A stretch of 32,000 bases of DNA from Desulfocapsa sulfexigens DSM 10523 (GCF_000341395.1 NC_020304.1:2010001-2042000), one strand, 5' to 3'. Positions 1-25,832 are shown, numbered from the stretch's first letter. Notes: generated by a model from the sequence alone, not told the origin. Made by a program: numbers and translations.

Positions 1-1832
1 ATGCTAACGGTATCGTTTAAACTTTGAGGGTCGGGAAGCGCAGAGGAGTAGACAGACTTGGGCAAAGAGCCACACATAAAAGACATGAAATCAATGAAAT
101 GACAAACTTCGCCAAGAATTCGTCCTCCACCAATTGTACCATCCTGGATCCAGGAGTCAGCGGGAATGGAACCAGCGCTGACCCGGTAGAGCATAGACAT
201 GGAACCACTGCCAAGCTTATCTTTCATGATCTGGACAAGTGGAGCAAAACGACGGTTAAATCCTACCATTAAGTGACTGTCACCAGTTGCGGCATTTTCT
301 ATCTCAGCCAGTTCTCCAAGGGTCAGACAGAGGGGTTTTTCCACGAAAACGTTTTTAGCAGTTTGCAGCGCTTCCAATACATATTCAGCATGACTGTTGT
401 GCCGGGTGGAGATGAAGACAGTGTTTATTTCCGTATTGCCAAAGATATCTGCTTTGTCAGAAGTACAGAATTCAAAGGAAAACTTCTCTGCAACCGTTTT
501 TGAGGTGGTACCGGATGAGGTCATTACCCCTTTATTGACAATATCAGAGTCGTTCCCAGGGATATTGGGTAATAAGCTTCCTTGGGCGTAACTTCCTGCA
601 CCGATAAAAGCCAATCCTATTTTCCCGGCAGCCTTTACCGGGGCTACAGGGATCTTTTCTCTCTTAAGTGGCTTTTTCACATCATATTTAATAAGGATTC
701 CAAGGAAGGGCTCACTGCGGTTAACCACCATGTCGTAAGCCTCAGGTGCATCCTCCAGCGAGAATTCATGGGTGGTTAGAAAGTCCAGATTGATCTTTTC
801 TGTACGGATGAGTTCCTGAAAAGCTGCCATATTACGATTTTCCGTCCAGCGAACATAGGCAGCAGGGTAATCAATCCCTTTTTCTTCATAATTGATATCA
901 TATCGCCCAGGACCGTAGGAACATGACATGCGAATATCCAGTTCTTTACGATAGTAATATGGATCCCGGTCAAACCCTGTGGGAACAGCACCAGAAACAA
1001 TGACTTTACCCTTCTTTCTAGCAATCTCACCGGCAAAGTTGATTGGCCCTAGACTATCTGTTGCGGCAGTAATAATAACAGCATCACAACCAAGGCCACT
1101 GGTAAATGCCGAAATGGAATCAGCCACACCTGTCTCTCCAAGAGCAAAGGCCAGATCGGCACAATTTTCCCGGGCCCGTTTAACTGCAGACTGATCAACA
1201 TCCAGACCAATTACCCGTATCCCTGAAGCCTGCAAAAACAAACACGACAGTTGGCCAAGCAAACCAAGGCCTATAACCGCACATGTCTCTCCAAGCCTCA
1301 GGTCGGCCTGACGAACCCCCTGCATAGCAATGGCACCAAGGGTGTTATATGCAGCTTGTTTCAGCAGTTTGTCTCCTCGCGCCTCACTCCTTTCACCTTT
1401 CACGTCCCCATTTACCTTGACGCATAAGTTTTTTGGTACAGATACAATCTCGGCATGATTGGCGGATAAACCACCGCAGGCAACTACATCACCAATTTGG
1501 AATTCTGTTATGTCAGGTGCAACATCAATGACTTCCCCGACACAGGAGTAACCAAGGGGGGAGTAAGCATCGAGTTTTTTCATGACAGCTCGATACGTTT
1601 GTACCGGCCCTTGGGTTTTTAATACATCGATAACCTGTTTAACCTGTTGGGGTCTTTCTTTGGCTTTGCCGATAAGGCCTTTTCGTGCAGTTTTGACAGT
1701 ACTGCCTTCGGTGCCCGCACTTATGAGGGAGTAGTGGTTACGAACCAATATACAACCCGAGGAGAGTGACGGCCAAGGGACTTCGATTGTTTTCATGTTG
1801 CCGTCTTTTAGTTTTTGGGCGAGTTGTTGCAT
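1..1832 (-). CDS. Bi-domain oxidoreductase: N-terminal zinc-type alcohol dehydrogenase (MDR) domain fused to a C-terminal Gfo/Idh/MocA NAD(P)-binding oxidoreductase domain; 3' end cut by the left window edge
   Basis: Absent from the ORF track because it has no in-window stop. Hand translation from ATG (rc of 1830..1832): MQQLAQKLKDGNMKTIEVPWP..LISAGTEGSTV..GYSCVGEVIDV..CAVIGLGLLGQL (Rossmann GxGxxG)..GKVIVSGAVPTGFDRDPYYYRKELD. The second domain reads KIGLAFIGAGSYAQG..VFVEKPLCLT..GFNRRFAP (Gfo/Idh/MocA hallmarks). I checked the frame at three points (1832, ~1439, ~1010) and it stays open to position 1. Confidence 0.8.
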   Translation of the reverse strand, partial: MQQLAQKLKDGNMKTIEVPWPSLSSGCILVRNHYSLISAGTEGSTVKTARKGLIGKAKERPQQVKQVIDVLKTQGPVQTYRAVMKKLDAYSPLGYSCVGEVIDVAPDITEFQIGDVVACGGLSANHAEIVSVPKNLCVKVNGDVKGERSEARGDKLLKQAAYNTLGAIAMQGVRQADLRLGETCAVIGLGLLGQLSCLFLQASGIRVIGLDVDQSAVKRARENCADLAFALGETGVADSISAFTSGLGCDAVIITAATDSLGPINFAGEIARKKGKVIVSGAVPTGFDRDPYYYRKELDIRMSCSYGPGRYDINYEEKGIDYPAAYVRWTENRNMAAFQELIRTEKINLDFLTTHEFSLEDAPEAYDMVVNRSEPFLGILIKYDVKKPLKREKIPVAPVKAAGKIGLAFIGAGSYAQGSLLPNIPGNDSDIVNKGVMTSSGTTSKTVAEKFSFEFCTSDKADIFGNTEINTVFISTRHNSHAEYVLEALQTAKNVFVEKPLCLTLGELAEIENAATGDSHLMVGFNRRFAPLVQIMKDKLGSGSMSMLYRVSAGSIPADSWIQDGTIGGGRILGEVCHFIDFMSFMCGSLPKSVYSSALPDPQSLNDTVS

Positions 1833-1855: not shown

Positions 1856-3040
1856 TTATTTTAGTAAATCATCTATTTTTTCAAATAATACATCACGAGA
1901 AAAGGAATTTCTAATTTGAATGACTGCCTTGCTTTTATTGATTATGTCCTCAACAGTGAGAGAATCTAGCAGCTGAGACACACTTTCCTTGTTAAAAGAA
2001 CAAGACCATCCAATTTGGTGCTCTAGGACAAACTGTGAGCTGTCAAAATCACCCAGCACAAGTATTGGTATGCCAGAAGCGACATAATCAAATACCTTGT
2101 TTGGGATAGATGGTGATATCATTGGGACAACACCAATATGCATCCTTTGAAGAATTGTTGGAACTTCCTCTGGTGCAACTTTACCAGTTATTGAGACGTT
2201 ATTAATCTTATATTGTTCAATAAGCTGAGTAATCTCTTGATACCTGTCGCCCGTCCCGTCTTCACCGACAATACTGAAATGGAATTTGGTATCACCTTTA
2301 ATTGCTTCTACAATGGGCGAACAGTCAATCTGGTGTTGCAATTTGGCTACGCAAACCAGCTTTATTTGTTCTCCATTATGCAATGGCTTCATCGCAGAAT
2401 CCACAGGCCACCGTGCTCTATCGTATCCTAAAGGAATGAATATTGATTTTTTCCCTGGTGCATATCTGTTAAGCCAGTTAGTAAATGATGGGGCAGTATG
2501 AATAAATAAATTAATAAATCTGAGCGATGGGTAAAGGAGTAAATTGCAGTATGAGTAGAATGCTATTTTCTTGATTCGCTGTGTGGGCGGGAGCATGTCA
2601 GGCCATACATCCTGGATATCAAGTAATACTGTATTCTTTTTTAAAATTCTTAGTATTGCAGCCGCGAAAATCATTTCCACGGGTCTTGATGGAAGGATGA
2701 GAGCAGTTTTTTTATTAAGACGTGGTAATAGGTAAAAGAAAAACTTCAATGACAATAGAATGTTAGATATGATCCGGCGTGGGGAAATATTTGACTGGTA
2801 GCCCAGGCATTTCATTACAGTCAGATGATATGGTGCACGATCCTCGGCCTCACCTATTTCTTCGTTACTAAACCATCGTTTTTCTGCATGATAGAAATCA
2901 GAAGTGAGATATTCCAATTCATGCCCATGGTTGACAAGAAATAATGCTAGAGCAGGATGACGGTTCCCTCTTTTAGTTAGAAGAGATTCTGTTGGGCCAA
3001 CAATGAATATCCTCTTGTGTCGTGAATCCGGTTTATTCAT
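1856..3040 (-). CDS. Glycosyltransferase, GT-B fold (GT4-like)
   Basis: 394-aa ORF. The C-terminal half shows a GT4-type donor-binding pattern (KLVCVAKL.., GKVAPEEVPTILQRMHIGVVPM, NKVFDYVASGIPILV). Its ATG at 3040 overlaps the stop of the upstream GT by 8 nt. Confidence 0.75.
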   Translation of the reverse strand: MNKPDSRHKRIFIVGPTESLLTKRGNRHPALALFLVNHGHELEYLTSDFYHAEKRWFSNEEIGEAEDRAPYHLTVMKCLGYQSNISPRRIISNILLSLKFFFYLLPRLNKKTALILPSRPVEMIFAAAILRILKKNTVLLDIQDVWPDMLPPTQRIKKIAFYSYCNLLLYPSLRFINLFIHTAPSFTNWLNRYAPGKKSIFIPLGYDRARWPVDSAMKPLHNGEQIKLVCVAKLQHQIDCSPIVEAIKGDTKFHFSIVGEDGTGDRYQEITQLIEQYKINNVSITGKVAPEEVPTILQRMHIGVVPMISPSIPNKVFDYVASGIPILVLGDFDSSQFVLEHQIGWSCSFNKESVSQLLDSLTVEDIINKSKAVIQIRNSFSRDVLFEKIDDLLK

Positions 3041-4148
3041 CTACTAAACTCTGATAGAGCGTTGCGAACTGCTCAGTAATAATTTCTGTAGTGTAGTGAT
3101 TTTTAGCGTCTTCTTGGATTTTTTGACGGCAATTTCTGATCTCTTCAATATTATCACAAGCCCAAGCCATTGTTTCCGCTAAGTGATGATGATCTCTGCA
3201 GCGGACAATTTTACCATTTTTGCCAGCAACAATAATATCTCTCAACGCACCAACATCAGTTGAGATGATAAACAGGCCAGCTCCCAGTGCTTCCAGCACA
3301 CTAGTAGGGCATCCTTCCGTCCACGATGGGAATACATAAATATCGCTGTCTGCAAAGGCTTGATATTTTTCCTTCCCTTCCAAACGTCCGGTGAAATGGA
3401 AACGATTTCCGAGATTGTATTCCTTGATTTTGGATTTATAGTCCTCCACGACTCCTTTACGATCCCCGTGTCCAACCATAAGGAATTCAAAGTCGAGATT
3501 TTTGTCGGCCAAGAGTTTGGCTGCATCAATCAGCTCGCCAATACCCTTTAAATGAGAAAGGCGACCAAGGAACAAAAAGCGAGGTCGTTTTTTAGATCGA
3601 TCTTTTGCAGGCAGGATCTCATCTGCAACATACATAGTGGTGGTGACCTTTATTGAATCAGGGCACCATCCAAACTCTACCAGATCTTCCTTGAAATGAG
3701 AGGCAAGTACCATTGTAACATCCGCCCTGCCATAGACAAACTGGAATATTTTCCGAATAAATGATCTTTTTTTAAACATACTGACGATATCTTCTTTCCA
3801 GCCGCGGTAAAAAACAACTACTCGGCGACTTAGTAACTTGGCTGCCATTACAATAAAGGCATCACGCACCAAGGGCACTGGGATGAGTGACGGACTTACC
3901 TGGACGATGAGGATATCTTTATCTGACAAAAGTCTCCCAAAAAATCGAAATAAATCAAAACAGTAGAATACTGGATACAGAATAAGTTTTTTCCATGGGG
4001 AATAAAAATGTTCCATTCGGGAACCGAAGGTTAAATGCACAAGAGATATAGTGTCACTTCTAAAGTGTTTCAAAAAAGTACGGTAGTAATTGACAACGCC
4101 TCCTTCGTGATTCAAGGGATTTGTGGTGATTAGAACTTTGTGTGTCAT
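3033..4148 (-). CDS. Glycosyltransferase family 4 (GT-B)
   Basis: 371-aa ORF. It carries RFLFLGRLSHLKGIGELIDA and FPSWTEGCPTSVLEALGAGLFIISTDVGALRDII (the E-x7-E region typical of GT4). Confidence 0.85.
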   Translation of the reverse strand: MTHKVLITTNPLNHEGGVVNYYRTFLKHFRSDTISLVHLTFGSRMEHFYSPWKKLILYPVFYCFDLFRFFGRLLSDKDILIVQVSPSLIPVPLVRDAFIVMAAKLLSRRVVVFYRGWKEDIVSMFKKRSFIRKIFQFVYGRADVTMVLASHFKEDLVEFGWCPDSIKVTTTMYVADEILPAKDRSKKRPRFLFLGRLSHLKGIGELIDAAKLLADKNLDFEFLMVGHGDRKGVVEDYKSKIKEYNLGNRFHFTGRLEGKEKYQAFADSDIYVFPSWTEGCPTSVLEALGAGLFIISTDVGALRDIIVAGKNGKIVRCRDHHHLAETMAWACDNIEEIRNCRQKIQEDAKNHYTTEIITEQFATLYQSLVDE

Positions 4149-4149
4149 A

Positions 4150-5310
4150 CTAGGGTGTTACTTGCGGTGTGGCGGAAATGTTTTTACGAGTGTCTAATAG
4201 TTTGATTAACGTTTCCACACGCAAATTGCATAAATAATTTTGGCAAAACGTTCCTGGTTCAAAGATCCATTTCTCAGAATGTTTATCCCATATCATTCTT
4301 CCAGTTTGATTATCAACGCGACATATCTCACGGGAGCCAGATTGCCCAAAGATAGCTTGCAACTCGTTAACAAAAAGTCGGCCATCTGACGTTAGAAAAA
4401 TATCAATGTTCATGCTCATAAACTTTCCGATGTCTGTTATCTTTTTGGTGAGATGCAGAACCTCGTCAGGCGGTTGACCGTAAAAAAAACGTTTTGACCC
4501 ACTATGCAAACCATTGCAGGAACCTTTTTCGTATCCGAAGAAAGAATTGCCTATTCGAACTGTTCTCCATTCACGAACATCTTGTAAGTATTCTTGGAGA
4601 AAGACACTTCCAAATTCGCGGTCATTTCTAATACGGCGATATGTTGAGTAGCCTTTTGAAAAACAATGTGTTATGTGCCTTTGAAGTGAGCCTCGATTGT
4701 CAAATATTATAACTCCAGAAGCACCTGATCCCATATTGCTTTTGAATATAATAGGGAGATTGCATTGTGAGGCGAAGTCAATGGCGTATTTTTTATTATA
4801 GAACACCCAACTTTTTGGGTGCGGTATATTATGAGCATCTAACCAATAATGCATTCGCCTTTTGCTCTCCCATATCCAAAGAGCTTCAGGGTCAGGAAAA
4901 ATAATACGCGGATCAATTGCAGAAAAAATCCGGAGTTTTTCATCGTACATTTCCTTCCACGTTTTATACTGTACAGATGGTCTACAAAGAAAAGCATCAC
5001 AGCCAGATTTTTTCAAAACATCAAGCCAATCAGGTCCTGAGATATCTATAATTTTATAAGATACATTTAAGTCACGGCAGGCAGCTATGAAAGGCCAGTG
5101 TAAATGCCAAAACTCTTTAATTATGCCAAACTGATATTTACTGTCCCCAGGAGCAAGCCACTCTTGTGACTCGTTGCGGTAAGGATTTTCTTCTCGCCAT
5201 TTTTCTCCTCTAGCAGAGAAGGTTGCAGGGTGCTGAAGAAGGAAATTCCTAATTGGAGGTGGCATTAGATGCCGAATATTCTTTGCAATTATAGTTTTGT
5301 AACTGAGCAT
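4150..5310 (-). CDS. ATP-grasp domain protein (putative ATP-dependent carboxylate-amine ligase)
   Basis: 386-aa ORF with an ATP-grasp-like layout: KRRMHYWLDAHNIPHPKSWVF (pre-ATP-grasp/central), LPIIFKSNMGSGASGVIIF (phosphate-binding loop), FLQEYLQDVREWRTVRIG, and NIDIFLTSDGRLFVNELQAIFG (Mg/ATP-binding E/N region). There is 0 nt between its start and the stop of the AsnB-like gene. Confidence 0.65.
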   Translation of the reverse strand: MLSYKTIIAKNIRHLMPPPIRNFLLQHPATFSARGEKWREENPYRNESQEWLAPGDSKYQFGIIKEFWHLHWPFIAACRDLNVSYKIIDISGPDWLDVLKKSGCDAFLCRPSVQYKTWKEMYDEKLRIFSAIDPRIIFPDPEALWIWESKRRMHYWLDAHNIPHPKSWVFYNKKYAIDFASQCNLPIIFKSNMGSGASGVIIFDNRGSLQRHITHCFSKGYSTYRRIRNDREFGSVFLQEYLQDVREWRTVRIGNSFFGYEKGSCNGLHSGSKRFFYGQPPDEVLHLTKKITDIGKFMSMNIDIFLTSDGRLFVNELQAIFGQSGSREICRVDNQTGRMIWDKHSEKWIFEPGTFCQNYLCNLRVETLIKLLDTRKNISATPQVTP

Positions 5311-7257
5311 TTACAAGCCTCTGTATGAGTTGTTGGATGTGTCTAAAAAAATTTGAGCCCAGATTTCAAAAGCCACAGCTATCCATATTTTTCGCCCGTT
5401 CTTTTGCCCTGACATCTTGAGTTGTGTCCACCAATTGCGCACAGTTGTTTCTTGAAATACCCCTCGATTCTTAATTCCTGGTAGGATGCATTGCTCCATG
5501 TAGTCCGTAAAATATTGTGTCTTAAAGAATTCTTCTAGCGGCAGAGGGAAGCCACATTTCGTTCTGTACGCAAAGTTGTTGTCAAATGTTTGTTCTGCCA
5601 GTTTTTTGAGGATTTTCTTTGTGTTTTTACTATAGCCGTTTTTGAATTGTAAGGAGTCCCCAACAAGGTAGTCAACCGGGAGCGAGTATACAAAGTCAAC
5701 AAGTTTTCGATCAAGGAATGGAACGCGATTTTCCATAGAGTGTGCCATGGTCATTTTGTCTTGTCTTACTAAAAGATCCACCATGTAAGTTTGCATGTCA
5801 TATTTCAAGCACTGTTTTATTATCCGTCCGCTGTCGAATCGCCCAAGAAGATTTTGACGCTTTCCTAATGTTTTATTCCAATCCATTTCTGGGCGTAACT
5901 TTTTAAGATCATCAAAAGATAGAGTAGCAGATGCTAGTATGAAAGCATCCTCTGGTGAAAGAGATGTGTTAAATTTTCTTGCTAATCGGCCACCAAGTCC
6001 CGGAATAAGTTGCAGCCCTGGAAGTAATGGTGTAAATCTTGAGCGCAATGCTACATCGTAGTAGCGACTGTAGCCTCCAAAAAGCTCGTCAGCACCCTCT
6101 CCACTAAGCAGTACTGTTACTATATCTTTCGATTTTTCGGCTAGAAGGTAGATACCAAGTGAGTTTGGCAGGTTTAATGGTTGATCAAGGTGCCAAGTTG
6201 CTTTGTCGAATGATGTGATGATATCTGAAACGCCCATCATGTACCGATGACTATGAACATTGCATTTAGCAGCGGCCTGAGAAATCCATTTATCTTCTGA
6301 GAATTCATTGTCTTGGAAGACTATAGAAAATGTTTCAAGGTCTGCACCAAAGTTTCTCCGCGCATATGCAGTTACAAGAGAAGAATCTATACCGCCAGAC
6401 AACTGGCACCCTAATTTCACGTCACTTATTAGCTGTCGTTCAACACTTTCTCCAAGTAGTTGATCCAGTTTGTTTAGAATAGCAGTCTCATCTAATGAGA
6501 TATCATAGTTTTTTGTACCTATTTCCCAGTACTGCTTTTTGGTAATACCATTGGAAGAAATGCGTAGAAAATATCCTGGTTGTAATTGTTTGACATTCTT
6601 CAGTAAGAAATCCTCATCAGCACAATAACGAAAAGTTAAGTATTCATCTACATGTGACCTATCAAGTTCTGCTCTAAAATCTGGATGTTCGAGGAACGAT
6701 TTAACCTCTGAAGAAAATAATACTGTGTTACCTTGTTTCACCCAATATAATGGTTTAATGCCAAAATGGTCTCTTGCTAGAAAAATTTCCCGCTTATTTA
6801 GATCCACAATACAAATTGCAAACATACCATTTAATCTATCAAGCATCGCTTCAAATCCGATGTGCTCATAGAGGTATAGAACTACTTCGGTGTCCGTTTT
6901 ACTCCGGAAAGTATACCCTGCGGCAGATAACTCTTTTTGGTAATCAAAGGCGTTGTATATTTCGCCATTAAAAGCAATAAAAATACTCCCATCATGGTTA
7001 CACATGGGCTGATGACCATCTGAAGATAGATCAAGAATTGATAGTCTGTTGAATCCGAGTCCTCCCTCGAAAGAACCATTCTTTTTTTTTTCTGTTTTTT
7101 TGGGGGACATTTCGCAGGAAGTTTGATGGGTAAGAGAAAACATTCTTATACCACTATCATCAGGCCCACGATGCTGTTGGCTGATTGTCATCCTTTTTAG
7201 TACGGCGGGGCTACATGGGGCACCGTTTAAATTATAGATCCCTAGAATTCCACACAT
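5311..7257 (-). CDS. Asparagine synthase (glutamine-hydrolysing) family amidotransferase, AsnB-like
   Basis: 648 aa. It starts MCGILGIY (Ntn Cys2 nucleophile), then HRGPDDSG and RLSILDLSSDGHQPM, followed by the PP-loop SGGIDSS in the synthetase domain. A Lys-rich insertion (SPKKTEKKKNG) in the glutaminase domain is encoded by A10 and A7 runs. Confidence 0.9.
   Translation of the reverse strand: MCGILGIYNLNGAPCSPAVLKRMTISQQHRGPDDSGIRMFSLTHQTSCEMSPKKTEKKKNGSFEGGLGFNRLSILDLSSDGHQPMCNHDGSIFIAFNGEIYNAFDYQKELSAAGYTFRSKTDTEVVLYLYEHIGFEAMLDRLNGMFAICIVDLNKREIFLARDHFGIKPLYWVKQGNTVLFSSEVKSFLEHPDFRAELDRSHVDEYLTFRYCADEDFLLKNVKQLQPGYFLRISSNGITKKQYWEIGTKNYDISLDETAILNKLDQLLGESVERQLISDVKLGCQLSGGIDSSLVTAYARRNFGADLETFSIVFQDNEFSEDKWISQAAAKCNVHSHRYMMGVSDIITSFDKATWHLDQPLNLPNSLGIYLLAEKSKDIVTVLLSGEGADELFGGYSRYYDVALRSRFTPLLPGLQLIPGLGGRLARKFNTSLSPEDAFILASATLSFDDLKKLRPEMDWNKTLGKRQNLLGRFDSGRIIKQCLKYDMQTYMVDLLVRQDKMTMAHSMENRVPFLDRKLVDFVYSLPVDYLVGDSLQFKNGYSKNTKKILKKLAEQTFDNNFAYRTKCGFPLPLEEFFKTQYFTDYMEQCILPGIKNRGVFQETTVRNWWTQLKMSGQKNGRKIWIAVAFEIWAQIFLDTSNNSYRGL
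7082..7091 (-). repeat. A10 (coding-strand) homopolymer inside the AsnB-like gene, followed 3 nt later by an A7 run (7095..7101)
   Basis: The plus strand reads c-tttttttttt-ctg-ttttttt-g. The coding strand tcc ccc aaa aaa aca gaa aaa aaa aag aat encodes SPKKTEKKKN. Confidence 0.9.
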
Positions 7258-7318
7258 ATTATTGGCGCCTATTGTATTGCTGTTGAAATAGGGAAGATTT
7301 TCCCCAGTTATTTTTTAA

Positions 7319-8362
7319 TTAGACTATGTCATTGTGTTTATAAAATTGCAATGTGCGGTTATCTAGTAGTAAGCCACCATGACACTGTAAGACATCTGGG
7401 TCCGGATGATGGTTGCCTTCAATGGCACAAATCCCATCATCGGTTAACAATATATCCCAACCGATACACTTTAGATAAGATAGATGGCCAGCAGCCTGTA
7501 ACAATTGTTCTTTGACTTCATTCCATTTTGGAACTGAGCAATCTTTTATAGGCGCCCCAGTGTCCGGATGTGATTCATACCATTTGAGAGATGGTGTATG
7601 AGGGTGCGTGGCGGCTGAACTCAGGTTGCCAGTCTTAAAGTCAATCATTGAACTTAATCCTCCTTTGGTGAAATTATCATGAGGAGCTGAGGTCTTGTTG
7701 CCGATTCTTTGGACTGCGCGTGCAATAAAAGGTTTTTTGGTATCTTTGTCTATAAGTGTTACAATTCGCATTGTGTTGGTTGTTGTGGGGTTTAGACTAC
7801 GTGGAAATGTACCTTGTTTTATATATTCTGTGATCAGGTAATTGTTCAGCTGTTCTAACTGAGCTATGAGGTCAGTTTTCTTTATCATTTTACCATTAAT
7901 GAAAATCGTGCCATTTTTTTCTTCCACAAGCATTATTCCATCACCTCCGCCACCAGCTACTGGTTTTAAGATGATAGGGCTTTTGTGGCAGTACTGAAAA
8001 AAATCATTCCATGTGTGCAAACCGGTATCTAAAGATGTAGCTAACAGCTCCCCATTTAGAATCAGGCCGTATGTTTTCGGTACTTTGATATAATCCCCTG
8101 CAATTTTTGCAAATAAAAATTTATTACTTAGGATATCTGTATAGGGATCATTGACCCAACGGGCCATAGAGGCATGAACATCTGATAAGTAATTTTGATA
8201 ACTATTCTTTTTCAAATTATATAAAATATACTTTTCTGCAAGAAAACCACGTTGCCATAGCAAGCATTTTTGATGGATAGGTAAGGGAAAGGAATTTCGT
8301 ATATCTTTAAGAAAGATATTCAGGTAGCTCCGAAGTAAATAGTATTTGGTTTTAACGGTCAT
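7319..8362 (-). CDS. Sugar-transfer-associated ATP-grasp protein (ATPgrasp_ST-like)
   Basis: 347 aa. Motifs: ILKPVAGGGGDGIMLVE (P-loop-like ATP-grasp motif), ITEYIKQ, RIVTL, and the C-terminal IGWDILLTDDGICAIEGNHHPD. The pattern matches my memory of the Pfam ATPgrasp_ST family found in polysaccharide loci. Confidence 0.65.
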   Translation of the reverse strand: MTVKTKYYLLRSYLNIFLKDIRNSFPLPIHQKCLLWQRGFLAEKYILYNLKKNSYQNYLSDVHASMARWVNDPYTDILSNKFLFAKIAGDYIKVPKTYGLILNGELLATSLDTGLHTWNDFFQYCHKSPIILKPVAGGGGDGIMLVEEKNGTIFINGKMIKKTDLIAQLEQLNNYLITEYIKQGTFPRSLNPTTTNTMRIVTLIDKDTKKPFIARAVQRIGNKTSAPHDNFTKGGLSSMIDFKTGNLSSAATHPHTPSLKWYESHPDTGAPIKDCSVPKWNEVKEQLLQAAGHLSYLKCIGWDILLTDDGICAIEGNHHPDPDVLQCHGGLLLDNRTLQFYKHNDIV

Positions 8363-8373
8363 TGGTTCTCTTG

Positions 8374-9603
8374 CTATGTCGCACCAACATATTTTGGGCG
8401 CGATTTTGTAGGTTCATGTGTTTTTCTTAATATTGCTGATGAGTAAGCAATAAGTAATCCAAAATAAAATGCCCCGGGTGCCATTAGATGTCCAGAGTAT
8501 ATATTTACTAAAAACAAAATGACATATCCCATAACCAGAGATGGTGTAAACGGATGACGGATCTTATAGCTTTTCAAAACAAGTATTAACATTTTGATAT
8601 GTAGCCATATTAAGAAACTTATCCCCAGCAAACCGAAATCGTGCATCAGCTGAATCCAGTCACTGTGAGCGTATTTTCCGCTCTTATTCATGATCTCACC
8701 GTAGTATATGTATCCCGTGTACCTTTGTACCGATTGAATACCGAAGCCGAATATGATATTCGATGGTTCGCTATGGATCCAATGGCTTATTAGCATTGAG
8801 TACATCCGGTCTCTGCCCGACCCACTGGTATCCTGGAAGCGCGTTTGGATAGCATCCCAGTTTGTGGCTAGAGCATACGAACTGATGATTGTCAGGATTA
8901 TGAGTACTTTGAGTAGTTTGATGAGTTTTCGTATATTACCATGTATTATTATATAAGTTAATCCGTAAGCAAAAAGAGATAAGACAAGGGCAATCATCGC
9001 TCCTCGTTTAACCGTTAGTAAAATTGCGAAGATGGCCAATGCAAAACCAAAATTTTTCAATCGGGATTTTTCTGTCATAAATAATAGTGGAAGGCACCAG
9101 AGTAAAAGATAGGCGCCTGCATTTTGTCCAGCTTCTGTTTCGGGTAATGTCATAAAATAGATGGTAAAGCCTGCACTGATCAAAATTGTTGAAATGATCA
9201 TTTGTTGCAATTTTTTTTTTGAGAAAATACCTGAAAGAGAAAGTCTATAAGCTACCACTGTTGCAATCAACCAAAAGATAATTCTTATGGAATAATACAG
9301 ATTATCTAGAATATTTAGTGAAAGTGCGGAGTAAATGATATTTAGTGCCGCATAGAAAGTTAGAAGATGGCCAAAGGGGAAATTGAATTTTCGGAATTGG
9401 AAACCTGTGCGTAGGAGATAGATAGAAAGCATGGCAAACAGGAGTGCACGAAGGCTCTTACTGAAAGGAAAATCAACCAGGCCGAGATCATAAAGCCAGT
9501 CCGACAAAACAAGTAGCACTACTCCAACATAAAGGTAGCGCATAGTGAAACGATCCGCTAGAAATTGGTAATTTGTTATCCTGTTTTGCTTGGATGTGGA
9601 CAT
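8374..9603 (-). CDS. O-antigen polymerase/ligase family membrane protein (Wzy_C domain), probable repeat-unit polymerase
   Basis: 409 aa, strongly hydrophobic and multi-TM. It has a periplasmic-loop signature YAHSDWIQLMHDFGLLG (H-x-D/N-x..L..G..G, as in the Wzy_C/O-antigen ligase family). It contains an A10 tract at 9211..9220. Confidence 0.75.
   Translation of the reverse strand: MSTSKQNRITNYQFLADRFTMRYLYVGVVLLVLSDWLYDLGLVDFPFSKSLRALLFAMLSIYLLRTGFQFRKFNFPFGHLLTFYAALNIIYSALSLNILDNLYYSIRIIFWLIATVVAYRLSLSGIFSKKKLQQMIISTILISAGFTIYFMTLPETEAGQNAGAYLLLWCLPLLFMTEKSRLKNFGFALAIFAILLTVKRGAMIALVLSLFAYGLTYIIIHGNIRKLIKLLKVLIILTIISSYALATNWDAIQTRFQDTSGSGRDRMYSMLISHWIHSEPSNIIFGFGIQSVQRYTGYIYYGEIMNKSGKYAHSDWIQLMHDFGLLGISFLIWLHIKMLILVLKSYKIRHPFTPSLVMGYVILFLVNIYSGHLMAPGAFYFGLLIAYSSAILRKTHEPTKSRPKYVGAT
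9211..9220 (-). repeat. A10 (coding-strand) homopolymer inside the Wzy_C polymerase gene
   Basis: The plus strand reads gcaa-tttttttttt-gag. The coding strand ttc tca aaa aaa aaa ttg encodes FSKKKL. Confidence 0.9.
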
Positions 9604-9614
9604 TGTTGTCTTAA

Positions 9615-10754
9615 TTAAAAATCTATGTTTTCATTACGCCATAATGTTTCAAGCGCTTCTCTGTGTACTTCACATGTTACTGTATTTTGCTGAAGCATCT
9701 TTGTTTTCTTTCTGTAAAACCAGTCGCTAAAATGTAATTTCTTATTCAGTATTCGTAGTAACCTGTTGTGACCACGAATTCGGCTTGCATGTAAATATTT
9801 TTCTTCTAGACAGGTTTTTAGCCATTTCTTGTGAACTGTTTCTTCGCTAATAATCTCCTTTGAGCGCTGCTCAAATCCGTTAAGACATTTATCGGATTGT
9901 TTCGGTGTCATACGCCTAATCCCAGGTATTGTACATGATTGTAAAAAAGGAATCCATTCTACATGCAAAGTGTTGTCAGGTGCGAAACACAATTTAACCA
10001 ATATGCCCTGCATTACAGATGGTTTGCTCATGGGGCGCGGTTCGAAAATAAGATTACCTTGCCCGTAAACAATTAGGGCTCCTTGGTAATATTCATAACA
10101 GCCGATACAATGTGAGTGCTGGCAAATAACAACACCTGCACCTTCCTCGATTAGAAATCGGCATAACTGCTGAAGACGTGGAGTAGGATATGGATAGTGC
10201 TCTTTGCCACCGTGGACTAATACAGTGAGAAAGTCGTGTTTGTTACGGGTGTGACGCAAAACTCGCACTATCTCAATTATGTCAATAGGATTAGCTCCTC
10301 CCTTGTTTTTTTCCGCGATACTGAATTCATGTTCAGCTATGCCCAAAAAACCGAAACGCTGTCCATTAATTTCATGGACAAAAACTTGGCTGGCGTCTCT
10401 CTGGTTGACACCGGCACCAAAGGAATTGATGCCTGCATTTTTACAGGCAGACAGAGTACTGCGTAATCCTTGCTCGCCATGGTCTAGAATGTGGTTGTTG
10501 GCGAGGTTGACTGCATTAATCCCTATCGAAACAAGTCCTTGGGAACAGTCGCTAGATACTCCCAGACAATTCCCACTTTTTTCAATTGGGCTTTCCCTTT
10601 CAATGAGCGGACATTCAAGATTGAGTACCGTAAAATCGGCTTGCCTGAACACAGGGAGGAGGTCATTAAGGATTGCTTGGGCATCGCCTGTTTGAAACAA
10701 AATCTCGTTAGATCCTACAGGACAGACATCTCCACCAATAAGTATTGTTGTCAT
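9615..10754 (-). CDS. CapA/PGA_cap family protein (metallophosphatase-like; homologue of the poly-gamma-glutamate capsule protein CapA)
   Basis: 379 aa. Motifs: ILIGGDVCP, VLNLECPL, NLANNHILDHGEQGL, GFLGIAEHEF, and LVHGGKEHYPYPTPRLQQLCRFLIEEGAGVVICQHSHCIG (the calcineurin-like H/D/N metal-ligand pattern typical of PGA_cap). Confidence 0.8.
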   Translation of the reverse strand: MTTILIGGDVCPVGSNEILFQTGDAQAILNDLLPVFRQADFTVLNLECPLIERESPIEKSGNCLGVSSDCSQGLVSIGINAVNLANNHILDHGEQGLRSTLSACKNAGINSFGAGVNQRDASQVFVHEINGQRFGFLGIAEHEFSIAEKNKGGANPIDIIEIVRVLRHTRNKHDFLTVLVHGGKEHYPYPTPRLQQLCRFLIEEGAGVVICQHSHCIGCYEYYQGALIVYGQGNLIFEPRPMSKPSVMQGILVKLCFAPDNTLHVEWIPFLQSCTIPGIRRMTPKQSDKCLNGFEQRSKEIISEETVHKKWLKTCLEEKYLHASRIRGHNRLLRILNKKLHFSDWFYRKKTKMLQQNTVTCEVHREALETLWRNENIDF

Positions 10755-10757
10755 GCC

Positions 10758-11789
10758 TTATTTCCTATTACTGCTGTCGTTGTTCTTGTTGATATCTGCC
10801 TGAAACCGGTCTTTTGTAAAGCTATACCAGACAGGGTATCCAAACTGACGTCCGAACCATCCTACTAATAATGCATATATTGTTTTTTGCAAAGTACGCA
10901 AGTTTTGACTCCATCTTATGTCTAGTCGAATATCACATGCCGATATGTCAAATCGAGACGGACTCCCACCTATGTTATGCCTTCCTATTCGGTCTATCTG
11001 TGACATCGTATCACTGTATGGTATGTTAAGGAAAACACAGATTTTTTTTAACTCCCTTCTAGGGGCAACACAAAGGTCTTCGTAGCGTATTTCTAGCTTC
11101 TGGGGGGCAGGGATTTCCTTCAATACAGCCAGTATACTAGAGTTTTTATAGAGCCAAGAAGTGATCCCACGCATAAAACCAATTAAACTGTATGTAGTAC
11201 GACTGTGGTGTCTACGGTTTTTTGAGAAGCTAACTGCTCGTCCATCGCGAATCAGATGGATAACCTTTAGTCGCGGACGGGGAGTTAATAATGTATAGCC
11301 CATTAGTACATTTGGGTTTTTAGATGAATCGACAACTAAGTGGCAACCAGACACATTAAATGCACAAGTCACTATCTCATTTCTAACTATTGCTGTTTGT
11401 AGCTCTTCTTCTAGATTATAGAGCAATCCCATGAGCCAGCGGCGTATTGTGTGGCTAGGGACAGTTAATGCCAAGATTGATAGAAAAACTCCTTTCAGGA
11501 CGTTTGGGTCTTTGGAACTGCACGTTGTGATTTCTGTCCAATCCAGTACCCCTCGTTGCTTTATTTCTGTTTGAATTTTGAACCAAAAGGGGCAAGTGTC
11601 GATATTATCGCCACAAGAACATTTCCATCCCCAGGACCAACCTGGTCCTTTGCGTTTTATATGCGAATCTAGGTGATGAAGCTCCCCTACACTCTGGATC
11701 TGTTTGTGAGCTCCTAGTAATTGATCTAGTAAAGTAGAACCTGAGCGGACATCAGAAGCTATGAAAAGGAGTGTATTTACATCGCCCAT
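10758..11789 (-). CDS. Sulfotransferase family protein (PAPS-dependent)
   Basis: 343 aa. The N-terminal FIASDVRSGSTLLDQLL matches the 5'-PSB loop (xRSGST). VIHLIRDGRAVSFS resembles the 3'-PB region. A Cys cluster CSCGDNIDTCPFW follows the PSB loop. Confidence 0.75.
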   Translation of the reverse strand: MGDVNTLLFIASDVRSGSTLLDQLLGAHKQIQSVGELHHLDSHIKRKGPGWSWGWKCSCGDNIDTCPFWFKIQTEIKQRGVLDWTEITTCSSKDPNVLKGVFLSILALTVPSHTIRRWLMGLLYNLEEELQTAIVRNEIVTCAFNVSGCHLVVDSSKNPNVLMGYTLLTPRPRLKVIHLIRDGRAVSFSKNRRHHSRTTYSLIGFMRGITSWLYKNSSILAVLKEIPAPQKLEIRYEDLCVAPRRELKKICVFLNIPYSDTMSQIDRIGRHNIGGSPSRFDISACDIRLDIRWSQNLRTLQKTIYALLVGWFGRQFGYPVWYSFTKDRFQADINKNNDSSNRK

Positions 11790-11830: not shown

Positions 11831-13132
11831 TTAGAGACATGTGGTTGGTAATTTTTTTATGTATTTTGTTGCTTTTAGAATGTAAACTGTTGCTAAGATA
11901 ACTTCGCCTGCTAACAAAGCTATAGCCGCACCAGTTGCTCCAAAATGTGGTGCTAAGATTAAACAAGCTGTTAACGACACCATACCTGCTGCTAATCTAG
12001 CCGAAAAGAATACTTTGTCTATACGTAGTAAAATTATGAATTGTCCCAAAAGAATATCAAAGACATAGGCTAGCAAACAAATTCCAAATAATCTAAGTAC
12101 CCAATAGCCGTTCGCATACTCAGGGATAAAAAATGTAAGCAGTATCTTTTTCGGAATAACAATTGCGGGCAATGCAATTATACTTACAGCAAGTATAGCA
12201 AAGGCAAGATAGATAACTAAAAAATGGATGATACCCCGTCCAGAGATTGAGCCTGGAGTGGTTTGTCGTGCTAAAATTGGTCTGCCTATTCGCGCAATAT
12301 TTTTCAGGAGCAACGTACCGATACTAAGCAACTGGAAGGAAGCGCCATACACACCTAAGTCAGAAAATCCTGCGGCATGTTTTAACGCTATGCTATTCAA
12401 TGCGGTCAAGGCAAGAGTAGCTAGGCTAGCCATCCACAACCATTTATTACTACTTAATAAAGCAAAAATAGATTTTTTAGTATGTTTTATCGACATGCCT
12501 TTCAGGTTCGGTGTGAGCCGTTTCCATGCATAGTGATATTGTAGAATGAGGAAAAATAAGACAGCAATAGTTAGGGCACCACCAATCAGTTCGAGATTTA
12601 GACGTGCCGGTTCCAAGAACAAAACAGTCCAAATTAGTATAAAGTATATTGTTCTTTCAGCACATGAGTATATAGCATGGCGCCCCTGACATTCCCAGAC
12701 ATCAAAAACGTTGGCTATTTGTAAGGGGCTTAACATTGTTGCTATACAAATCCAAAACATCCCCCAAGAGATATTTAGAATGGAGTCTGGTAGAGTGACC
12801 AGTATAAGCAAGGTGATGCTACAGAGGCAAAACAGCAATCCGCGAATTAACAAACTAACCGTCAATGTTTCATTGAAGCGCCCTGGGTAATGAGTGAGAT
12901 CTCGAATTAGCGAACGATCCATGCCAAAACGGATATTGGCCGCTAGAATGGTGCCAACAGCTATTGCGTATGTAAGCTCACCAAACTTTGCTGCTCCTAG
13001 TGCGTTGGCTATTTTGATAGTCGTGACAAACCCCAGTCCTGCCATGTAAATATTAGAGAACAATAAAATGCTTAGGTTATTCAGTCGTCCGCGTTGTGTT
13101 TTGAATAGTGTTTTTATATAAGCTGTGTGCAT
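11831..13132 (-). CDS. wzx: Oligosaccharide/polysaccharide flippase, Wzx (MOP superfamily)
   Basis: 433 aa, hydrophobic throughout (about 12 TM segments by eye). The N-terminal LLFSNIYMAGLGFVTTIKIANALGAAKFGELTY is typical of Polysacc_synt/Wzx proteins. It sits in a Wzy-type locus. Confidence 0.75.
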   Translation of the reverse strand: MHTAYIKTLFKTQRGRLNNLSILLFSNIYMAGLGFVTTIKIANALGAAKFGELTYAIAVGTILAANIRFGMDRSLIRDLTHYPGRFNETLTVSLLIRGLLFCLCSITLLILVTLPDSILNISWGMFWICIATMLSPLQIANVFDVWECQGRHAIYSCAERTIYFILIWTVLFLEPARLNLELIGGALTIAVLFFLILQYHYAWKRLTPNLKGMSIKHTKKSIFALLSSNKWLWMASLATLALTALNSIALKHAAGFSDLGVYGASFQLLSIGTLLLKNIARIGRPILARQTTPGSISGRGIIHFLVIYLAFAILAVSIIALPAIVIPKKILLTFFIPEYANGYWVLRLFGICLLAYVFDILLGQFIILLRIDKVFFSARLAAGMVSLTACLILAPHFGATGAAIALLAGEVILATVYILKATKYIKKLPTTCL

Positions 13133-22020: not shown

Positions 22021-22074
22021 ATCGTATTGTTTCCTGTGAGAATTCAAGACTGTTATTTGTAATAAAGATTACGT

Positions 22075-24803: not shown

Positions 24804-25832
24804 TTATCCCAGATTCTGCAAATACCATTGGGCTGCTTTATCCAGACCAGCCTGTACCGAAAAAGAAGGTTTATAGCCAATCAGTCTCTTAGCTTTTGAG
24901 ATGTCTGCAAGTGAATGGCGTACATCTCCAGCTCTAAAATCGCGGTATTCCGGTGCAGCGTTCATGGCCGATTCATGAGTTGCTACAACCCTCTCTTTTA
25001 TCAATTGAAAAAGTTCATTGAGGGTTGTCCTTTCGCCAAAGGCAACATTATACACCTGATTTGATGCCTCTTCATTCTTCGCCGTTGCTGCCAGGAGGTT
25101 TGCTTCTACAGCGTTTTCAATAAAACAGAAATCCCGGCTTGTTTCGCCATCGCCATTGATAAAAACGGTTTCATTTTTTATGAGTCCAGCAAACCATTTT
25201 GGAATAACCGCCGCATAGGCGCCATTGGGGTCCTGGCGTTGTCCGAAAATATTAAAATATCTGAGACCGATTGTTTTGAAACCATAGGTTTTTGCAAAAA
25301 CATCGCTATACAGTTCGTTAACGAGCTTTGTCACAGCGTAGGGAGAAAGAGGTTTGCCAATTTTATCCTCTTCCTTGGGCAGATCCGGGTGATCACCATA
25401 GGTGGAACTTGATGCCGCGTAAACAAAACGTTGAACGTTTGCATCCTTTGCAGCCACCAGCATATTCAAAAATCCACTGATGTTGTTTTCATTCGTTGTG
25501 ATCGGGTCTTCAATGGATCGTGGTACGGAACCAAGGGCTGCTTGATGGAGAACGTAGTCGACATTGCTACAGGCATGTGTGCAATCATCTATACTCCGGA
25601 TATCTCCTTCAATAAAGGTGAATTGCTGCCACTGCTTCTCGCTTACCAGTGATTGAACCTCATCGAAATTATGTTGAAATCCCGTCGAAAAGTTATCCAA
25701 ACCCACAACTTTCTGGTTTAGCTTAAGAAGGGTTTCAAGGAGGTTGGAGCCGATAAAACCGGCAACACCGGTGATGAGCCAGGTGTACTGCTTGTCTGTC
25801 AGATGGTTTTGAAGTGTCTCGTAATGTGTCAT
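24804..25832 (-). CDS. tviC: NAD-dependent UDP-HexNAc(A) 4-epimerase, TviC/WbpP-like
   Basis: 342 aa. Motifs: [45 protein letters not shown] and [13 protein letters not shown] (YxxxK). The family pattern matches WbpP/TviC, and the gene lies next to a TviB-like gene. Confidence 0.8.

Follow-up and report, generated by a model that had tools for sequence, protein, structure and literature searches.

The DNA analysed here, referred to as the window, is a stretch of 32,000 nucleotides of the Desulfocapsa sulfexigens DSM 10523 genome (NC_020304.1:2010001-2042000), whose 19 proteins were screened with Pfam and NCBIfam profiles. Four open reading frames between positions 4150 and 10754, all on the minus strand, encode products 100% identical to NCBI proteins of this strain: AG1 (4150..5310, 386 amino acids), a full-length AsnB-type glutamine-dependent amidotransferase (5311..7257, 648 amino acids), AGST (7319..8362, 347 amino acids) and a CapA-like protein (9615..10754, 379 amino acids). 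The gene of the Wzy polymerase (8374..9603; Wzy_C 5.6e-11) is located between the last two. Also on the minus strand, the cluster is flanked on one side by genes for the glycosyltransferases GT4b (3033..4148; Glycos_transf_1 3.5e-32) and GT4a (1856..3040; Glyco_trans_1_4 1.9e-10) and for a bi-domain oxidoreductase (1..1832; Zn-ADH-like plus Gfo/Idh/MocA by NCBIfam domain matches), which runs off the window after the N-terminal 610 of its 723 residues. A complete copy of the latter is visible in locus L001. On the other side, CapA adjoins a sulfotransferase gene (10758..11789; Sulfotransfer_3 6.4e-21), followed by the gene of the Wzx flippase (11831..13132; Polysacc_synt 7.5e-18). The computed spacers from GT4b through the sulfotransferase gene (3033..11789) are 1, 0, 61, 11, 11 and 3 nt, and the tight packing around Wzy described in the original prediction (0-61 nt) was recovered as 0, 61, 11 and 11 nt. 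No transmembrane-like segments were found in AG1, AsnB, AGST and CapA, as opposed to 7-8 in Wzy and Wzx (seven in Wzy).

AG1 gave no Pfam match in the profile search. Its profile matches were weak (RimK, LysX and PurK), the best NCBIfam model being rimK_fam with 28.6 bits (cutoff 143). The AlphaFold model (pLDDT 86, pTM 0.85) displays a three-domain ATP-grasp fold, and the top Foldseek matches were ArgX, LysX, RimK, Ddl and PurK (E ~1e-13, probability 1.0, TM to target 0.7-0.78). K190, the G194/G199 loop, Q239, E247-W-R249, D303 and E316 are shared by all 21 homologues compared, N315 by nearly all; the motif VNELQ aligned with INEFA of PurK. Judged by motifs and predicted fold, AG1 belongs to the ATP-grasp superfamily, with the ATP-binding lysine, the flexible glycine-rich loop and the acidic/amide Mg ligands present. 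Since it falls under every curated Pfam and NCBIfam ATP-grasp cutoff, it represents a separate, unnamed family, for which 217 representatives were counted at E<=1e-30 in 1.84 billion proteins. Some relatives are fused to GT, Wzy_C, GNAT (P0371, P0459) or methyltransferase domains.

AGST matched ATPgrasp_ST (PF14397) with 1.4e-43 and 149.5 bits (cutoff 31.4) over profile positions 8-272 of 278. Its invariant residues are K133, R199, D229-N230, D303 and E315-x-N317, together with G140 of the glycine-rich loop that comes after K133. The profiles of AGST and AG1 matched each other marginally (hhalign probability 19%), and both proteins gave weak RimK/alpha-L-glutamate-ligase matches far under the family cutoffs. 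AG1 and AGST are assigned to different families of ATP-grasp ligases, each with an intact ATP/Mg signature. AGST homologues often occur in 2-3 tandem copies in polysaccharide loci. AsnB contains GATase_7 (5.5e-43) and Asn_synthase (1.2e-76) domains and scored 447 bits with TIGR01536 (cutoff 267). The N-terminus MCGILG (Cys2) and the PP-loop LSGGIDSS were intact, as had been claimed, and by its sequence the protein is a complete class II glutamine amidotransferase of the asparagine synthetase B family. All four domain calls of the original prediction hold, those of Asn_synthase, ATPgrasp_ST and PGA_cap by Pfam and that of AG1, where Pfam gave no match, by the AlphaFold/Foldseek fold.

The predicted supply of uronic acid by TviB/TviC-like enzymes was also borne out. 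Upstream of the cluster, the window encodes, again on the minus strand, a TviB UDP-GlcNAc 6-dehydrogenase as carboxylate source (26008..27282; NF011729, 594 bits, cutoff 592) and a TviC-like UDP-GlcNAcA 4-epimerase (24804..25832; NF011728, 511 bits, the best match but under cutoff), which are 60% and 67% identical, respectively, to the E. coli O121 enzymes. TviB/TviC are kept at 54-66% identity in related loci, TviC-like at 57-66% to L061/L062. The pair is assigned the supply of UDP-GalNAcA in the locus. The E. coli O121 and O35 O-antigens contain GalNAcAN. In their gene clusters asnB lies beside tviB/tviC, and these clusters, together with that of WbpS of P. aeruginosa O6, resemble the window in combining a full-length class II amidotransferase with tviB/tviC-type genes; the expected product, a GalNAcA amide, is the same as proposed here. 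The O121 order wzy-asnB-GT4-GT4 mirrors the window, but the two AsnB proteins are only 30% identical, in an alignment that spans 98% of their length. These O-antigen clusters, however, lack ATP-grasp and CapA genes, both of which are present in the window. AsnB-dependent uronamide formation in E. coli is itself a proposed pathway only (PMC7685785). This and the low AsnB identity count against the amide-forming reading set out below.

A colinear eight-gene order, AGST-AsnB-CapA-AG1-Wzy-GT4-GT4-bi-domain oxidoreductase, was found in one Pirellulaceae genome (L002) and in seven Flavobacteriaceae. Since the colinear cassette is kept at 40-66% protein identity across three phyla, the grouping of the genes goes beyond chance. 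The oxidoreductase is the best-conserved cassette gene (62-66% identity across phyla). Identities of GT4a were 38-56% across cassette loci. GT4b was colinear, at 44-55% identity, in most Flavobacteriaceae and in L002, with L042 lower at 30%; in Allochromatium L061 it reached 65%. The Wzx proteins of L002 and L061 share 53-56% identity with that of the window. The sulfotransferase gene lies outside the conserved core, but sulfotransferases recur in related loci, with one in L063 and a weak match in L029/L037. The neighbourhoods in Pirellulaceae and Flavobacteriaceae support the claim that the four genes belong together, but the unit is wider than was proposed and also includes Wzy, two GT4 enzymes and the oxidoreductase. 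Flavobacterial versions carry MurA-like and MurB-like paralogues, from which a lactyl-ether carboxylate is expected.

AGST adjoined AsnB in 9/9 loci, and the commonest arrangement of CapA, seen in 12 loci, was directly upstream of AG1. The cassette thus consists of two pairs, AGST plus AsnB and CapA plus AG1, which suggests two sub-modules. Coupling of CapA to the ligases is not obligatory, because in 33 of 49 loci AG1 was present and CapA absent, and AG1/AGST were absent from all six contexts sampled through CapA alone. In these contexts an Acetyltransf_6 protein, a small GNAT and an unannotated protein of ~400 amino acids flanked CapA in place of AG1/AGST, and the steadiest partner of CapA (5/6) was a glutaminase-less AsnB-like PP-loop enzyme. 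Altogether, an AsnB-family PP-loop enzyme was encoded in 19 of the 26 CapA-containing loci, including these five. The set of four genes represents one variant of a wider cassette family. The ~400-residue neighbour is deacetylase-like by motifs alone. CapA has an APH-like kinase gene in its vicinity in L002, L004 and L005, and a methyltransferase gene as well in L002 and L005; one related locus contains a separate gene of the C5-epim_C family.

The CapA-like protein matched PGA_cap (PF09587) with 1.3e-49 and 169.4 bits (cutoff 27) over profile positions 1-254 of 255, and carries a conserved C-terminal helical extension. Its only sequence relatives in the PDB were entries of MslH, a lasso-peptide C-terminal Trp epimerase (PDB 8GQ9; PMC10406935, PMC8179263), which is also a soluble PGA_cap protein and shares 18-19% identity with it. 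MslH was likewise the top Foldseek match of the model (pLDDT 89; E 2e-20, TM to query 0.66-0.68), separated by 12 orders of magnitude in E-value from the next matches, which were true phosphoesterases (4e-8); more distant matches were 5'-nucleotidases and purple acid phosphatases. Residues D9, E47, N87, H88, D91, H181, E185, H213 and H215 are invariant in 17 orthologues. In MslH the metal ligands are E44/N87/H259/H261, and H88/D91 and H295/D11 form dyads (PMC10406935). As aligned, D11, E44, N87, H88, D91, H259 and H295 of MslH correspond to the invariant D9, E47, N87, H88, D91, H181 and H215 of CapA, so that the metal-ligand set (H261 excepted) and the His/Asp dyads are common to both; the H261 position is variable among CapA orthologues, with the invariant E185 adjacent. 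Motif I reads D9-V-C11, as opposed to DxH in calcineurin-like metallophosphoesterases, with no His in 17/17 orthologues, and this His is absent from MslH also (PMC10406935). With the NCBIfam MslH model (NF038314) CapA scored 53 bits against a cutoff of 700, and its context is an EPS operon with no lasso-peptide cluster. CapA is predicted from sequence and model to "work like" MslH, with a putative epimerase role, rather than to be an MslH.

Amide-linked ammonia and amino acids are common on the uronic acids of O-antigens, capsules and marine EPS. To our knowledge, hardly any enzyme has been assigned to their installation apart from the TupA-like amidoligase of C. jejuni. The capsule of this organism is not made by the Wzx/Wzy route. 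The C-terminal amidoligase of C. jejuni HS:2 Cj1438 is comparable to the present ligases: it is an ATP-grasp enzyme of a capsule locus that amidates a uronic acid at C6, and it is linked physically to glycosyltransfer as part of a GT fusion (PMC11800379), a fusion partner found with AG1 relatives as well. The precedents cited in the original prediction are real, AsnB genes of O-antigen loci being exemplified by O121 and O35, but the C. jejuni enzymes are of other families: a TupA-like model was matched by neither AG1, which has no Pfam family, nor AGST (PF14397) in the profile search. In C. jejuni, moreover, dedicated PLP enzymes make the amine, a phosphorylated amino alcohol, and a HAD phosphatase does the trimming. 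Domain profiles detected no HAD phosphatase and no kinase, PLP enzyme or other amine-phosphate synthesis gene among the 19 proteins of the window.

These differences bear on the trimming role originally predicted for CapA, in which an ATP-dependent ligase, of ATP-grasp or AsnB-like type, would join a phosphorylated amine (O-phospho-serine, -ethanolamine or serinol phosphate) to the uronic acid and CapA would remove the phosphate, as does the HAD enzyme of C. jejuni HS:2 (PMC11800379, refs 38, 39 therein). The calcineurin-like fold with its distant matches to phosphatases agrees with such a role, as do the kinase and methyltransferase genes near CapA in the loci named above; moreover, the residues common to CapA and MslH are largely superfamily-wide and therefore compatible with hydrolysis. 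However, the window offers no route to an amine phosphate, both the ligase and the phosphatase families are unlike those of C. jejuni, and we know of no PGA_cap family member for which phosphatase activity has been shown. Because the nearest structure is MslH, a single-metal epimerase far closer to CapA than any hydrolase, because the active-site residues are kept and because the motif-I His that coordinates metal 1 in phosphoesterases is lacking, epimerisation is better supported than phosphate trimming, which we consider decidedly unlikely.

Taken together, the genes may constitute a module for cytoplasmic tailoring within a Wzx/Wzy exopolysaccharide pathway, which converts sugar carboxylates to amides by amidation or aminoacylation of GalNAcA-type carboxylates combined with epimerisation; we give this reading a probability of about 0.5. 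CapA is placed in the cytoplasm with the ligases because the four enzymes, devoid of transmembrane-like segments, are encoded inside the assembly operon. All steps would precede flipping, with either the nucleotide sugar or the Und-PP-linked repeat unit as substrate. AG1 and/or AGST would convert a carboxylate, either C6 of GalNAcA or the free carboxylate of an already attached amino acid, to an acyl phosphate and then couple an amino acid. AsnB would adenylate the remaining carboxylate and cap it with glutamine-derived ammonia, yielding a uronamide or an amidated amino-acid terminus, comparable to isoglutamine and amidated mDAP of peptidoglycan. The metal of the CapA-like enzyme would bind a free carboxylate and the adjacent C-H centre would be reversibly inverted, for example from an L-Thr to a D-allo-Thr aminoacyl group, one epimer then being trapped by ATP-driven amidation or ligation; the pull by the later step is our inference. 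The two sub-modules might build one substituent, such as a short amidated peptide with a D-residue, or modify two different acidic residues. In the peptidoglycan stem peptide, which contains D-residues, MurC-F extend a sugar-borne carboxylate one amino acid at a time in the cytoplasm, and free carboxylates are amidated by MurT/GatD or, in some species, by the AsnB homologues AsnB1/LtsA. The likeness is functional only, since the cassette ligases are from other superfamilies and the product is a Wzx/Wzy exopolysaccharide; the flavobacterial MurA/MurB paralogues are a further resemblance. No characterised pathway with this enzyme combination was found in searches of the literature, in agreement with the original prediction.

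D-allo-threonine amides of GalA and GlcA are known in O-antigens (PMC7685785, PMC10609480), and they are the product expected if C-alpha of an L-Thr amide is inverted. MslH epimerisation is reversible and proceeds by alpha-proton abstraction beside a metal-bound carboxylate (PMC10406935). It is conceivable, though doubtful at present, that the CapA-like protein represents the first glycan-acting epimerase of the MslH type, reversibly inverting the carbon beside a sugar-borne or aminoacyl carboxylate, with an AsnB-family or ATP-grasp step locking the epimer.

The ligases could also work in the opposite orientation, activating the carboxylate of an amino acid and joining it to the amine of an amino sugar, so that only AsnB would act on the uronic acid. 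Models for such substituents are the N-acetyl-glycyl and N-acetyl-D-allo-threonyl groups of E. coli O121 and O63, and N-linked amino acids including D-allo-Thr are known (PMC7685785). The GNAT-AG1 fusions (P0371, P0459) would suit N-acetylation of a newly attached amino acid and, like the methyltransferase-AG1 fusions, fit this orientation equally well, which counts against the tailoring of sugar carboxylates; the small GNAT, the Acetyltransf_6 protein and the protein deacetylase-like by motifs that flank CapA in the CapA-sampled contexts point the same way. Nevertheless, a free sugar amine is not predicted, because no DegT aminotransferase or deacetylase was found in the window or in the eight-gene cassette, and the conserved companions are genes for the supply of uronic-acid and lactyl carboxylates. 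We regard this orientation as unlikely.

The weak RimK-type matches of both ligases, the tandem ATPgrasp_ST genes and the membership of CapA in a family defined by a PGA synthesis protein could indicate iterative, RimK-like ligation to an oligo-glutamate-type chain, as in teichuronopeptide or poly-gamma-glutamate, with CapA acting as in PgsBCA. The CapA/PgsA protein of PgsBCA/CapBCA is of the same Pfam family and likewise has an ATP-dependent amide ligase as partner. In the PGA system, however, PgsA/CapA is anchored in the membrane, whereas the window CapA has no transmembrane-like segment and shares only about 28% identity with the Bacillus protein; the partner ligase is of the Mur-ligase type, as opposed to the ATP-grasp and AsnB types here, and PgsB- (Mur-ligase-type) or PgsC-like domains were not detected among the 19 proteins of the window. 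As the RimK matches also lie far under the family cutoffs, such a tail is improbable. An epimerase function has been suggested for CapA/PgsA itself (PMC8179263).

Finally, CapA might be a metal-dependent uronate C5-epimerase, converting D-GalNAcA to L-AltNAcA or a similar sugar, which an AsnB-family enzyme would then trap as the amide. The C5-H is alpha to the C6 carboxylate, and the chemistry would be that of MslH (PMC10406935); the steadiest partner of CapA is an AsnB-family enzyme rather than an amino-acid ligase, and L061 and L062 retain TviB/TviC next to CapA. Yet the O-antigen cluster of E. coli SD2019180 contains capA and a gene for a 546-residue hypothetical protein, and in its published repeat unit the uronic acid is only an unmodified beta-D-GlcA, as indicated by coupling constants, accompanied by neither an amino acid nor an epimerised uronate (PMC10606467). 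This plain beta-D-GlcA is also a point against the preferred reading, the amide-forming tailoring module. With the C5-epim_C family gene present separately in a related locus and with no precedent, C5-epimerisation is the least probable of the explanations considered.

Amide substituents on uronic acids alter charge, antigenicity and phage recognition, and the cassette provides a conserved, multi-phylum candidate gene set for this chemistry, including two ATP-grasp families without an assayed member, and assigns a soluble PGA_cap protein to polysaccharide tailoring. Cultured Winogradskyella, Psychroserpens, Allochromatium and Geomonas, as well as E. coli SD2019180, are tractable test systems. 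If the CapA-like protein is indeed an epimerase, this would explain the origin of D-allo-threonine and other D-amino-acid amides on bacterial uronic acids, and would provide a general biochemical role for the large polysaccharide-associated PGA_cap branch and, by extension, for PgsA/CapA; locking of the epimer by the ligases would give the two ATP-grasp families their first functions.

Nearly the entire window was taken up by a single exopolysaccharide (EPS) locus on the minus strand of the D. sulfexigens chromosome, and the three proteins queried (the ATP-grasp protein AG1, the ATPgrasp_ST protein AGST and the CapA-like protein CapA) were 100% identical to NCBI entries of Desulfocapsa sulfexigens DSM 10523. 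In the order of transcription the locus begins with genes for a BBP2_2 porin, Wza and Wzc, followed by TviB (26008-27282), a TviC-like epimerase (24804-25832) and a UXS/ArnA-like SDR, all on the minus strand. The next gene, encoding an AAA_14/DUF4143 ATPase (22287-23690), is the only one on the plus strand and breaks the otherwise unidirectional operon. Then, again on the minus strand, come two tandem Wzy_C-TPR paralogues, membrane proteins of 776 and 785 aa (17152-19482 and 19690-22047), additional to the cassette's own Wzy; similar genes are found in the Planctomycetota loci L004, L006 and L007. Between these genes and Wzx lies a minus-strand gene (13184-17113) for a 1309-aa protein with PcRGLX-like and GH127-like domains and an N-terminal hydrophobic segment, a possible EPS lyase or hydrolase, which is not conserved in related loci. 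The remaining minus-strand genes encode Wzx, a sulfotransferase, CapA (9615-10754), Wzy (8374-9603), AGST (7319-8362), AsnB (5311-7257), the second ATP-grasp protein AG1 (4150-5310), two GT4 glycosyltransferases (GT4b and GT4a) and an oxidoreductase with Zn-ADH-like and Gfo/Idh/MocA domains. The ORF-poor left end (1-1832) is not a feature of its own: it is the oxidoreductase gene running off the window, whose 723-aa product is encoded completely in locus L001 (8094-10265). In related loci, the genes after the oxidoreductase encode a ~400-aa protein (weak GH88-like match) and a WecG/TagA transferase. An Rfam scan of the window gave no match.

All four genes of the original prediction were found in place, packed as described with spacers of 0-61 nt. 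AsnB has the predicted intact Cys2 and PP-loop (N-terminus MCGILG; LSGGIDSS) and scored 447 bits with the NCBIfam asparagine-synthase model (cutoff 267). The ATPgrasp_ST assignment of AGST (1.4e-43), which retains K133, R199, D303 and E315-x-N317, and the PGA_cap assignment of CapA (1.3e-49) were unambiguous. Because AG1 had no Pfam match and matched RimK and PurK only weakly, its structure was modelled from an alignment of 21 homologues. The model (pLDDT 86) bore out the predicted assignment: it is plainly an ATP-grasp fold, with ArgX, LysX, RimK, Ddl and PurK as its nearest matches. In the alignment, the lysine that binds ATP, the glycine-rich loop and the acidic residues that bind Mg were invariant. 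AG1 and AGST were rejected as paralogues (hhalign profile-profile probability only 19%). The locus also encodes the expected TviB/TviC-like enzymes: TviB scored above its equivalog cutoff, TviC was the best match for its gene, and the two are 60% and 67% identical, respectively, to their counterparts in the O121 O-antigen cluster of E. coli.

A scan using one genome per species yielded 55 loci with an AG1 relative, distributed over Planctomycetota, Desulfobacterota, Bacteroidota, Acidobacteriota, WOR-3, Zixibacteria, Nitrospinota, Verrucomicrobiota, Bacillota and even Methanogenium, among others. All window proteins were compared with these loci by tblastn and all neighbouring ORFs were clustered. 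The order AGST-AsnB-CapA-AG1-Wzy-GT4b-GT4a-oxidoreductase was colinear in one Pirellulaceae genome (44-65% identity) and in seven Flavobacteriaceae. Most cassette genes in these loci shared 38-64% identity with the proteins of the window (Wzy only 26-31%), and the best conserved was the oxidoreductase (62-66% in Planctomycetota, Bacteroidota and Gammaproteobacteria). AGST adjoined AsnB in nine of nine cases; CapA, found in 16 of 49 AG1 loci, stood directly upstream of AG1 in 12 loci. This colinearity, together with the AGST/AsnB and CapA/AG1 adjacencies, indicates that the four genes are part of a real, horizontally mobile unit. Chance clustering was rejected on this synteny, which upholds the predicted grouping; the true unit is larger than the span originally assigned to it. 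The sulfotransferase is outside the conserved core. TviB and TviC are too distant from AG1 to fall inside the 10-kb flanks compared; they were seen beside CapA in the Allochromatium locus L061 and in L062 (54-66% identity), and as an edge fragment in the Pirellulaceae locus L002 and the flavobacterial locus L032.

With 217 representatives at E<=1e-30 in a set of 1.84 billion proteins, AG1 forms a small family. Some members are fused to glycosyltransferase, Wzy_C, GNAT or methyltransferase domains, fusions that tie the family to repeat-unit assembly. The glycosyltransferase-fused relatives resemble Cj1438 of C. jejuni, itself a glycosyltransferase-amidoligase fusion. ATPgrasp_ST, a family reportedly defined by Iyer et al. 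in 2009, is often represented in polysaccharide loci by two or three gene copies in tandem; a Clostridia locus of this kind also carries a PGA_cap gene, and another carries AsnB. A literature search returned no mention of ATPgrasp_ST or PF14397.

Several AG1 homologues have other neighbours. In eight loci of WOR-3, Zixibacteria, Nitrospinaceae and Nitrosomonas (L031, L033-L036, L039-L041) an octopine/nopaline-dehydrogenase-family gene directly follows AG1, in place of CapA or the glycosyltransferases; this pairing points to a product of the opine type or to an N-(carboxyalkyl)amino-acid substituent. Just upstream of five flavobacterial cassettes (L022, L029, L032, L037 and L042) are MurA-like (EPSP_synthase family, 1e-70) and MurB-like paralogues, which would imply a lactyl-ether (muramic-acid-like) sugar as a second kind of carboxylate acceptor. 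The homologues in Methanogenium, an archaeal methanogen (L045-L047; 36-37% identity), share a conserved neighbourhood that is unrelated to the bacterial cassette.

With CapA as the only starting point, contexts were also sampled in Allochromatium vinosum, delta proteobacterium NaphS2 and four metagenomic contigs; none of these six contained AG1 or AGST. In four of them CapA was neighboured by an Acetyltransf_6 protein and by a ~400-aa protein lacking annotation, usually with a small ORF of ~220 aa (GNAT by Pfam in L061) between Acetyltransf_6 and CapA, and three had a Gfo/Idh/MocA oxidoreductase downstream of GT4 genes. In five, an AsnB-like protein of 520-545 aa with an SGG[LM]DS PP-loop and no glutaminase domain was encoded a few genes from CapA, and an AsnB-family enzyme was present in 19 of 26 CapA-containing loci. 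Thus, the four-part set of the window is one version of a wider family of cassettes, across which CapA is most consistently accompanied by an AsnB-type adenylating enzyme. Glutaminase-less AsnB-like proteins (520-590 aa; PP-loop SGG[LM]DS or SSGYDS) were seen beside CapA in L061, L063, L069, L070 and L071 and as cluster c27 in L024 and L027. That CapA generally serves such enzymes as a substitute ammonia source was rejected, as the window combines CapA with a complete glutaminase domain.

The position held elsewhere by AG1 is occupied in L061-L063 and L069 by a conserved protein of ~390-410 aa directly after CapA, with the invariant motifs VIESDDWGSIRTS, HAREH, APNC-W and SHRVN. It had no match in Pfam, NCBIfam or PDB and no tblastn similarity to AG1, and was therefore rejected as a divergent AG1. 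Its motifs DDWGS and HAREH possibly indicate a deacetylase-like enzyme.

CapA had been predicted to act as a trimming or processing enzyme. It has no hydrophobic segment and is therefore predicted to be cytoplasmic. Its only sequence relatives in PDB were the entries of MslH, a Ca-dependent epimerase of the C-terminal residue of a peptide, in which the free carboxylate sits at the metal and the dyads are His88/Asp91 and His295/Asp11 (PMC10406935). The CapA model (pLDDT 89) matched MslH with E 2e-20; true phosphoesterases came next, at ~4e-8. As in MslH, the motif I phosphoesterase histidine is missing (D9-V-C11). Counterparts of MslH residues (D9, E47, N87, H88, D91, H181 and H215) were invariant in CapA and 16 orthologues; these fall short of proof because most are common to the whole superfamily. 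No gene supplying an amine phosphate for trimming was found in the window. On these data the epimerase reading is better supported than phosphate trimming, though short of proof. The discoverers of MslH also put forward an epimerase role for the CapA of PGA synthesis (PMC8179263); our literature search found no experimental paper on PgsA in this role. A tblastn search of plasmids with CapA found only distant family genes (<=30% identity; best matches, Bacillus CapA of the PGA type) and no informative polysaccharide cluster.

The locus provides a UDP-GalNAcA supply (TviB/TviC), four soluble tailoring enzymes within the assembly operon, intact catalytic signatures and conserved synteny. In the layered scheme that we consider the best explanation, with a probability of about 0.5 as a whole, the steps would precede flipping: the ATP-grasp ligases would join an amino acid to a sugar carboxylate or to that of a previously attached residue. 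AsnB would cap a carboxylate with glutamine-derived ammonia, and CapA would reversibly invert the carbon beside a free carboxylate, an ATP-driven step trapping one epimer. The epimerase detail, taken alone, is rather doubtful. AG1 and CapA are each found without the other, and the GNAT fusions of AG1 would allow the opposite orientation of ligation. Inversion of L-Thr at C-alpha gives D-allo-threonine, a residue that occurs in E. coli O110, O46, O134 and O63 and in Hafnia alvei 1206. We know of no genes assigned to the documented uronic acid amides. The scheme fits known polysaccharide chemistry, which includes primary uronamides and GalA/GlcA amides with Gly, Ala, Ser, Thr, Lys, Glu and, notably, D-allo-threonine (PMC7685785, PMC10609480). 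For E. coli, the AsnB-to-GalNAcAN pathway is expressly presented as a proposal rather than an experimental result (PMC7685785).

Our search found no characterised polysaccharide from a cassette-bearing organism. Functionally, the nearest characterised system is the Cj1438 amidoligase of C. jejuni together with a HAD phosphatase (PMC11800379); it differs in ATP-grasp family, phosphatase family, amine donor and assembly route. E. coli O121 and O35 have AsnB beside tviB/tviC, as here, but no ATP-grasp or CapA gene; throughout the tviB/tviC clusters inspected (O121, O35, O138, O139 and strain PI7) there was AsnB at most. The only paper found to note capA in an O-antigen cluster leaves its role unexplained: in E. 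coli SD2019180, a 546-aa hypothetical gene and a GT4 come after capA (351 aa), yet the published repeat shows its terminal beta-D-GlcA (C6 169.0 ppm) only in unmodified form (PMC10606467). A primary amide would escape notice there because the study included no mass spectrometry and C6 was at 169.0 ppm (PMC10606467); we treat such an amide as a lead only. SD2019180 is a tractable test system for the CapA and AsnB-like pair, and Winogradskyella pulchriflava, Psychroserpens burtonensis and Allochromatium vinosum are carriers easier to handle than D. sulfexigens. Amide decoration of acidic sugars is itself already known; a glycan-associated MslH-type PGA_cap protein would be a new component, if the epimerase reading is true.
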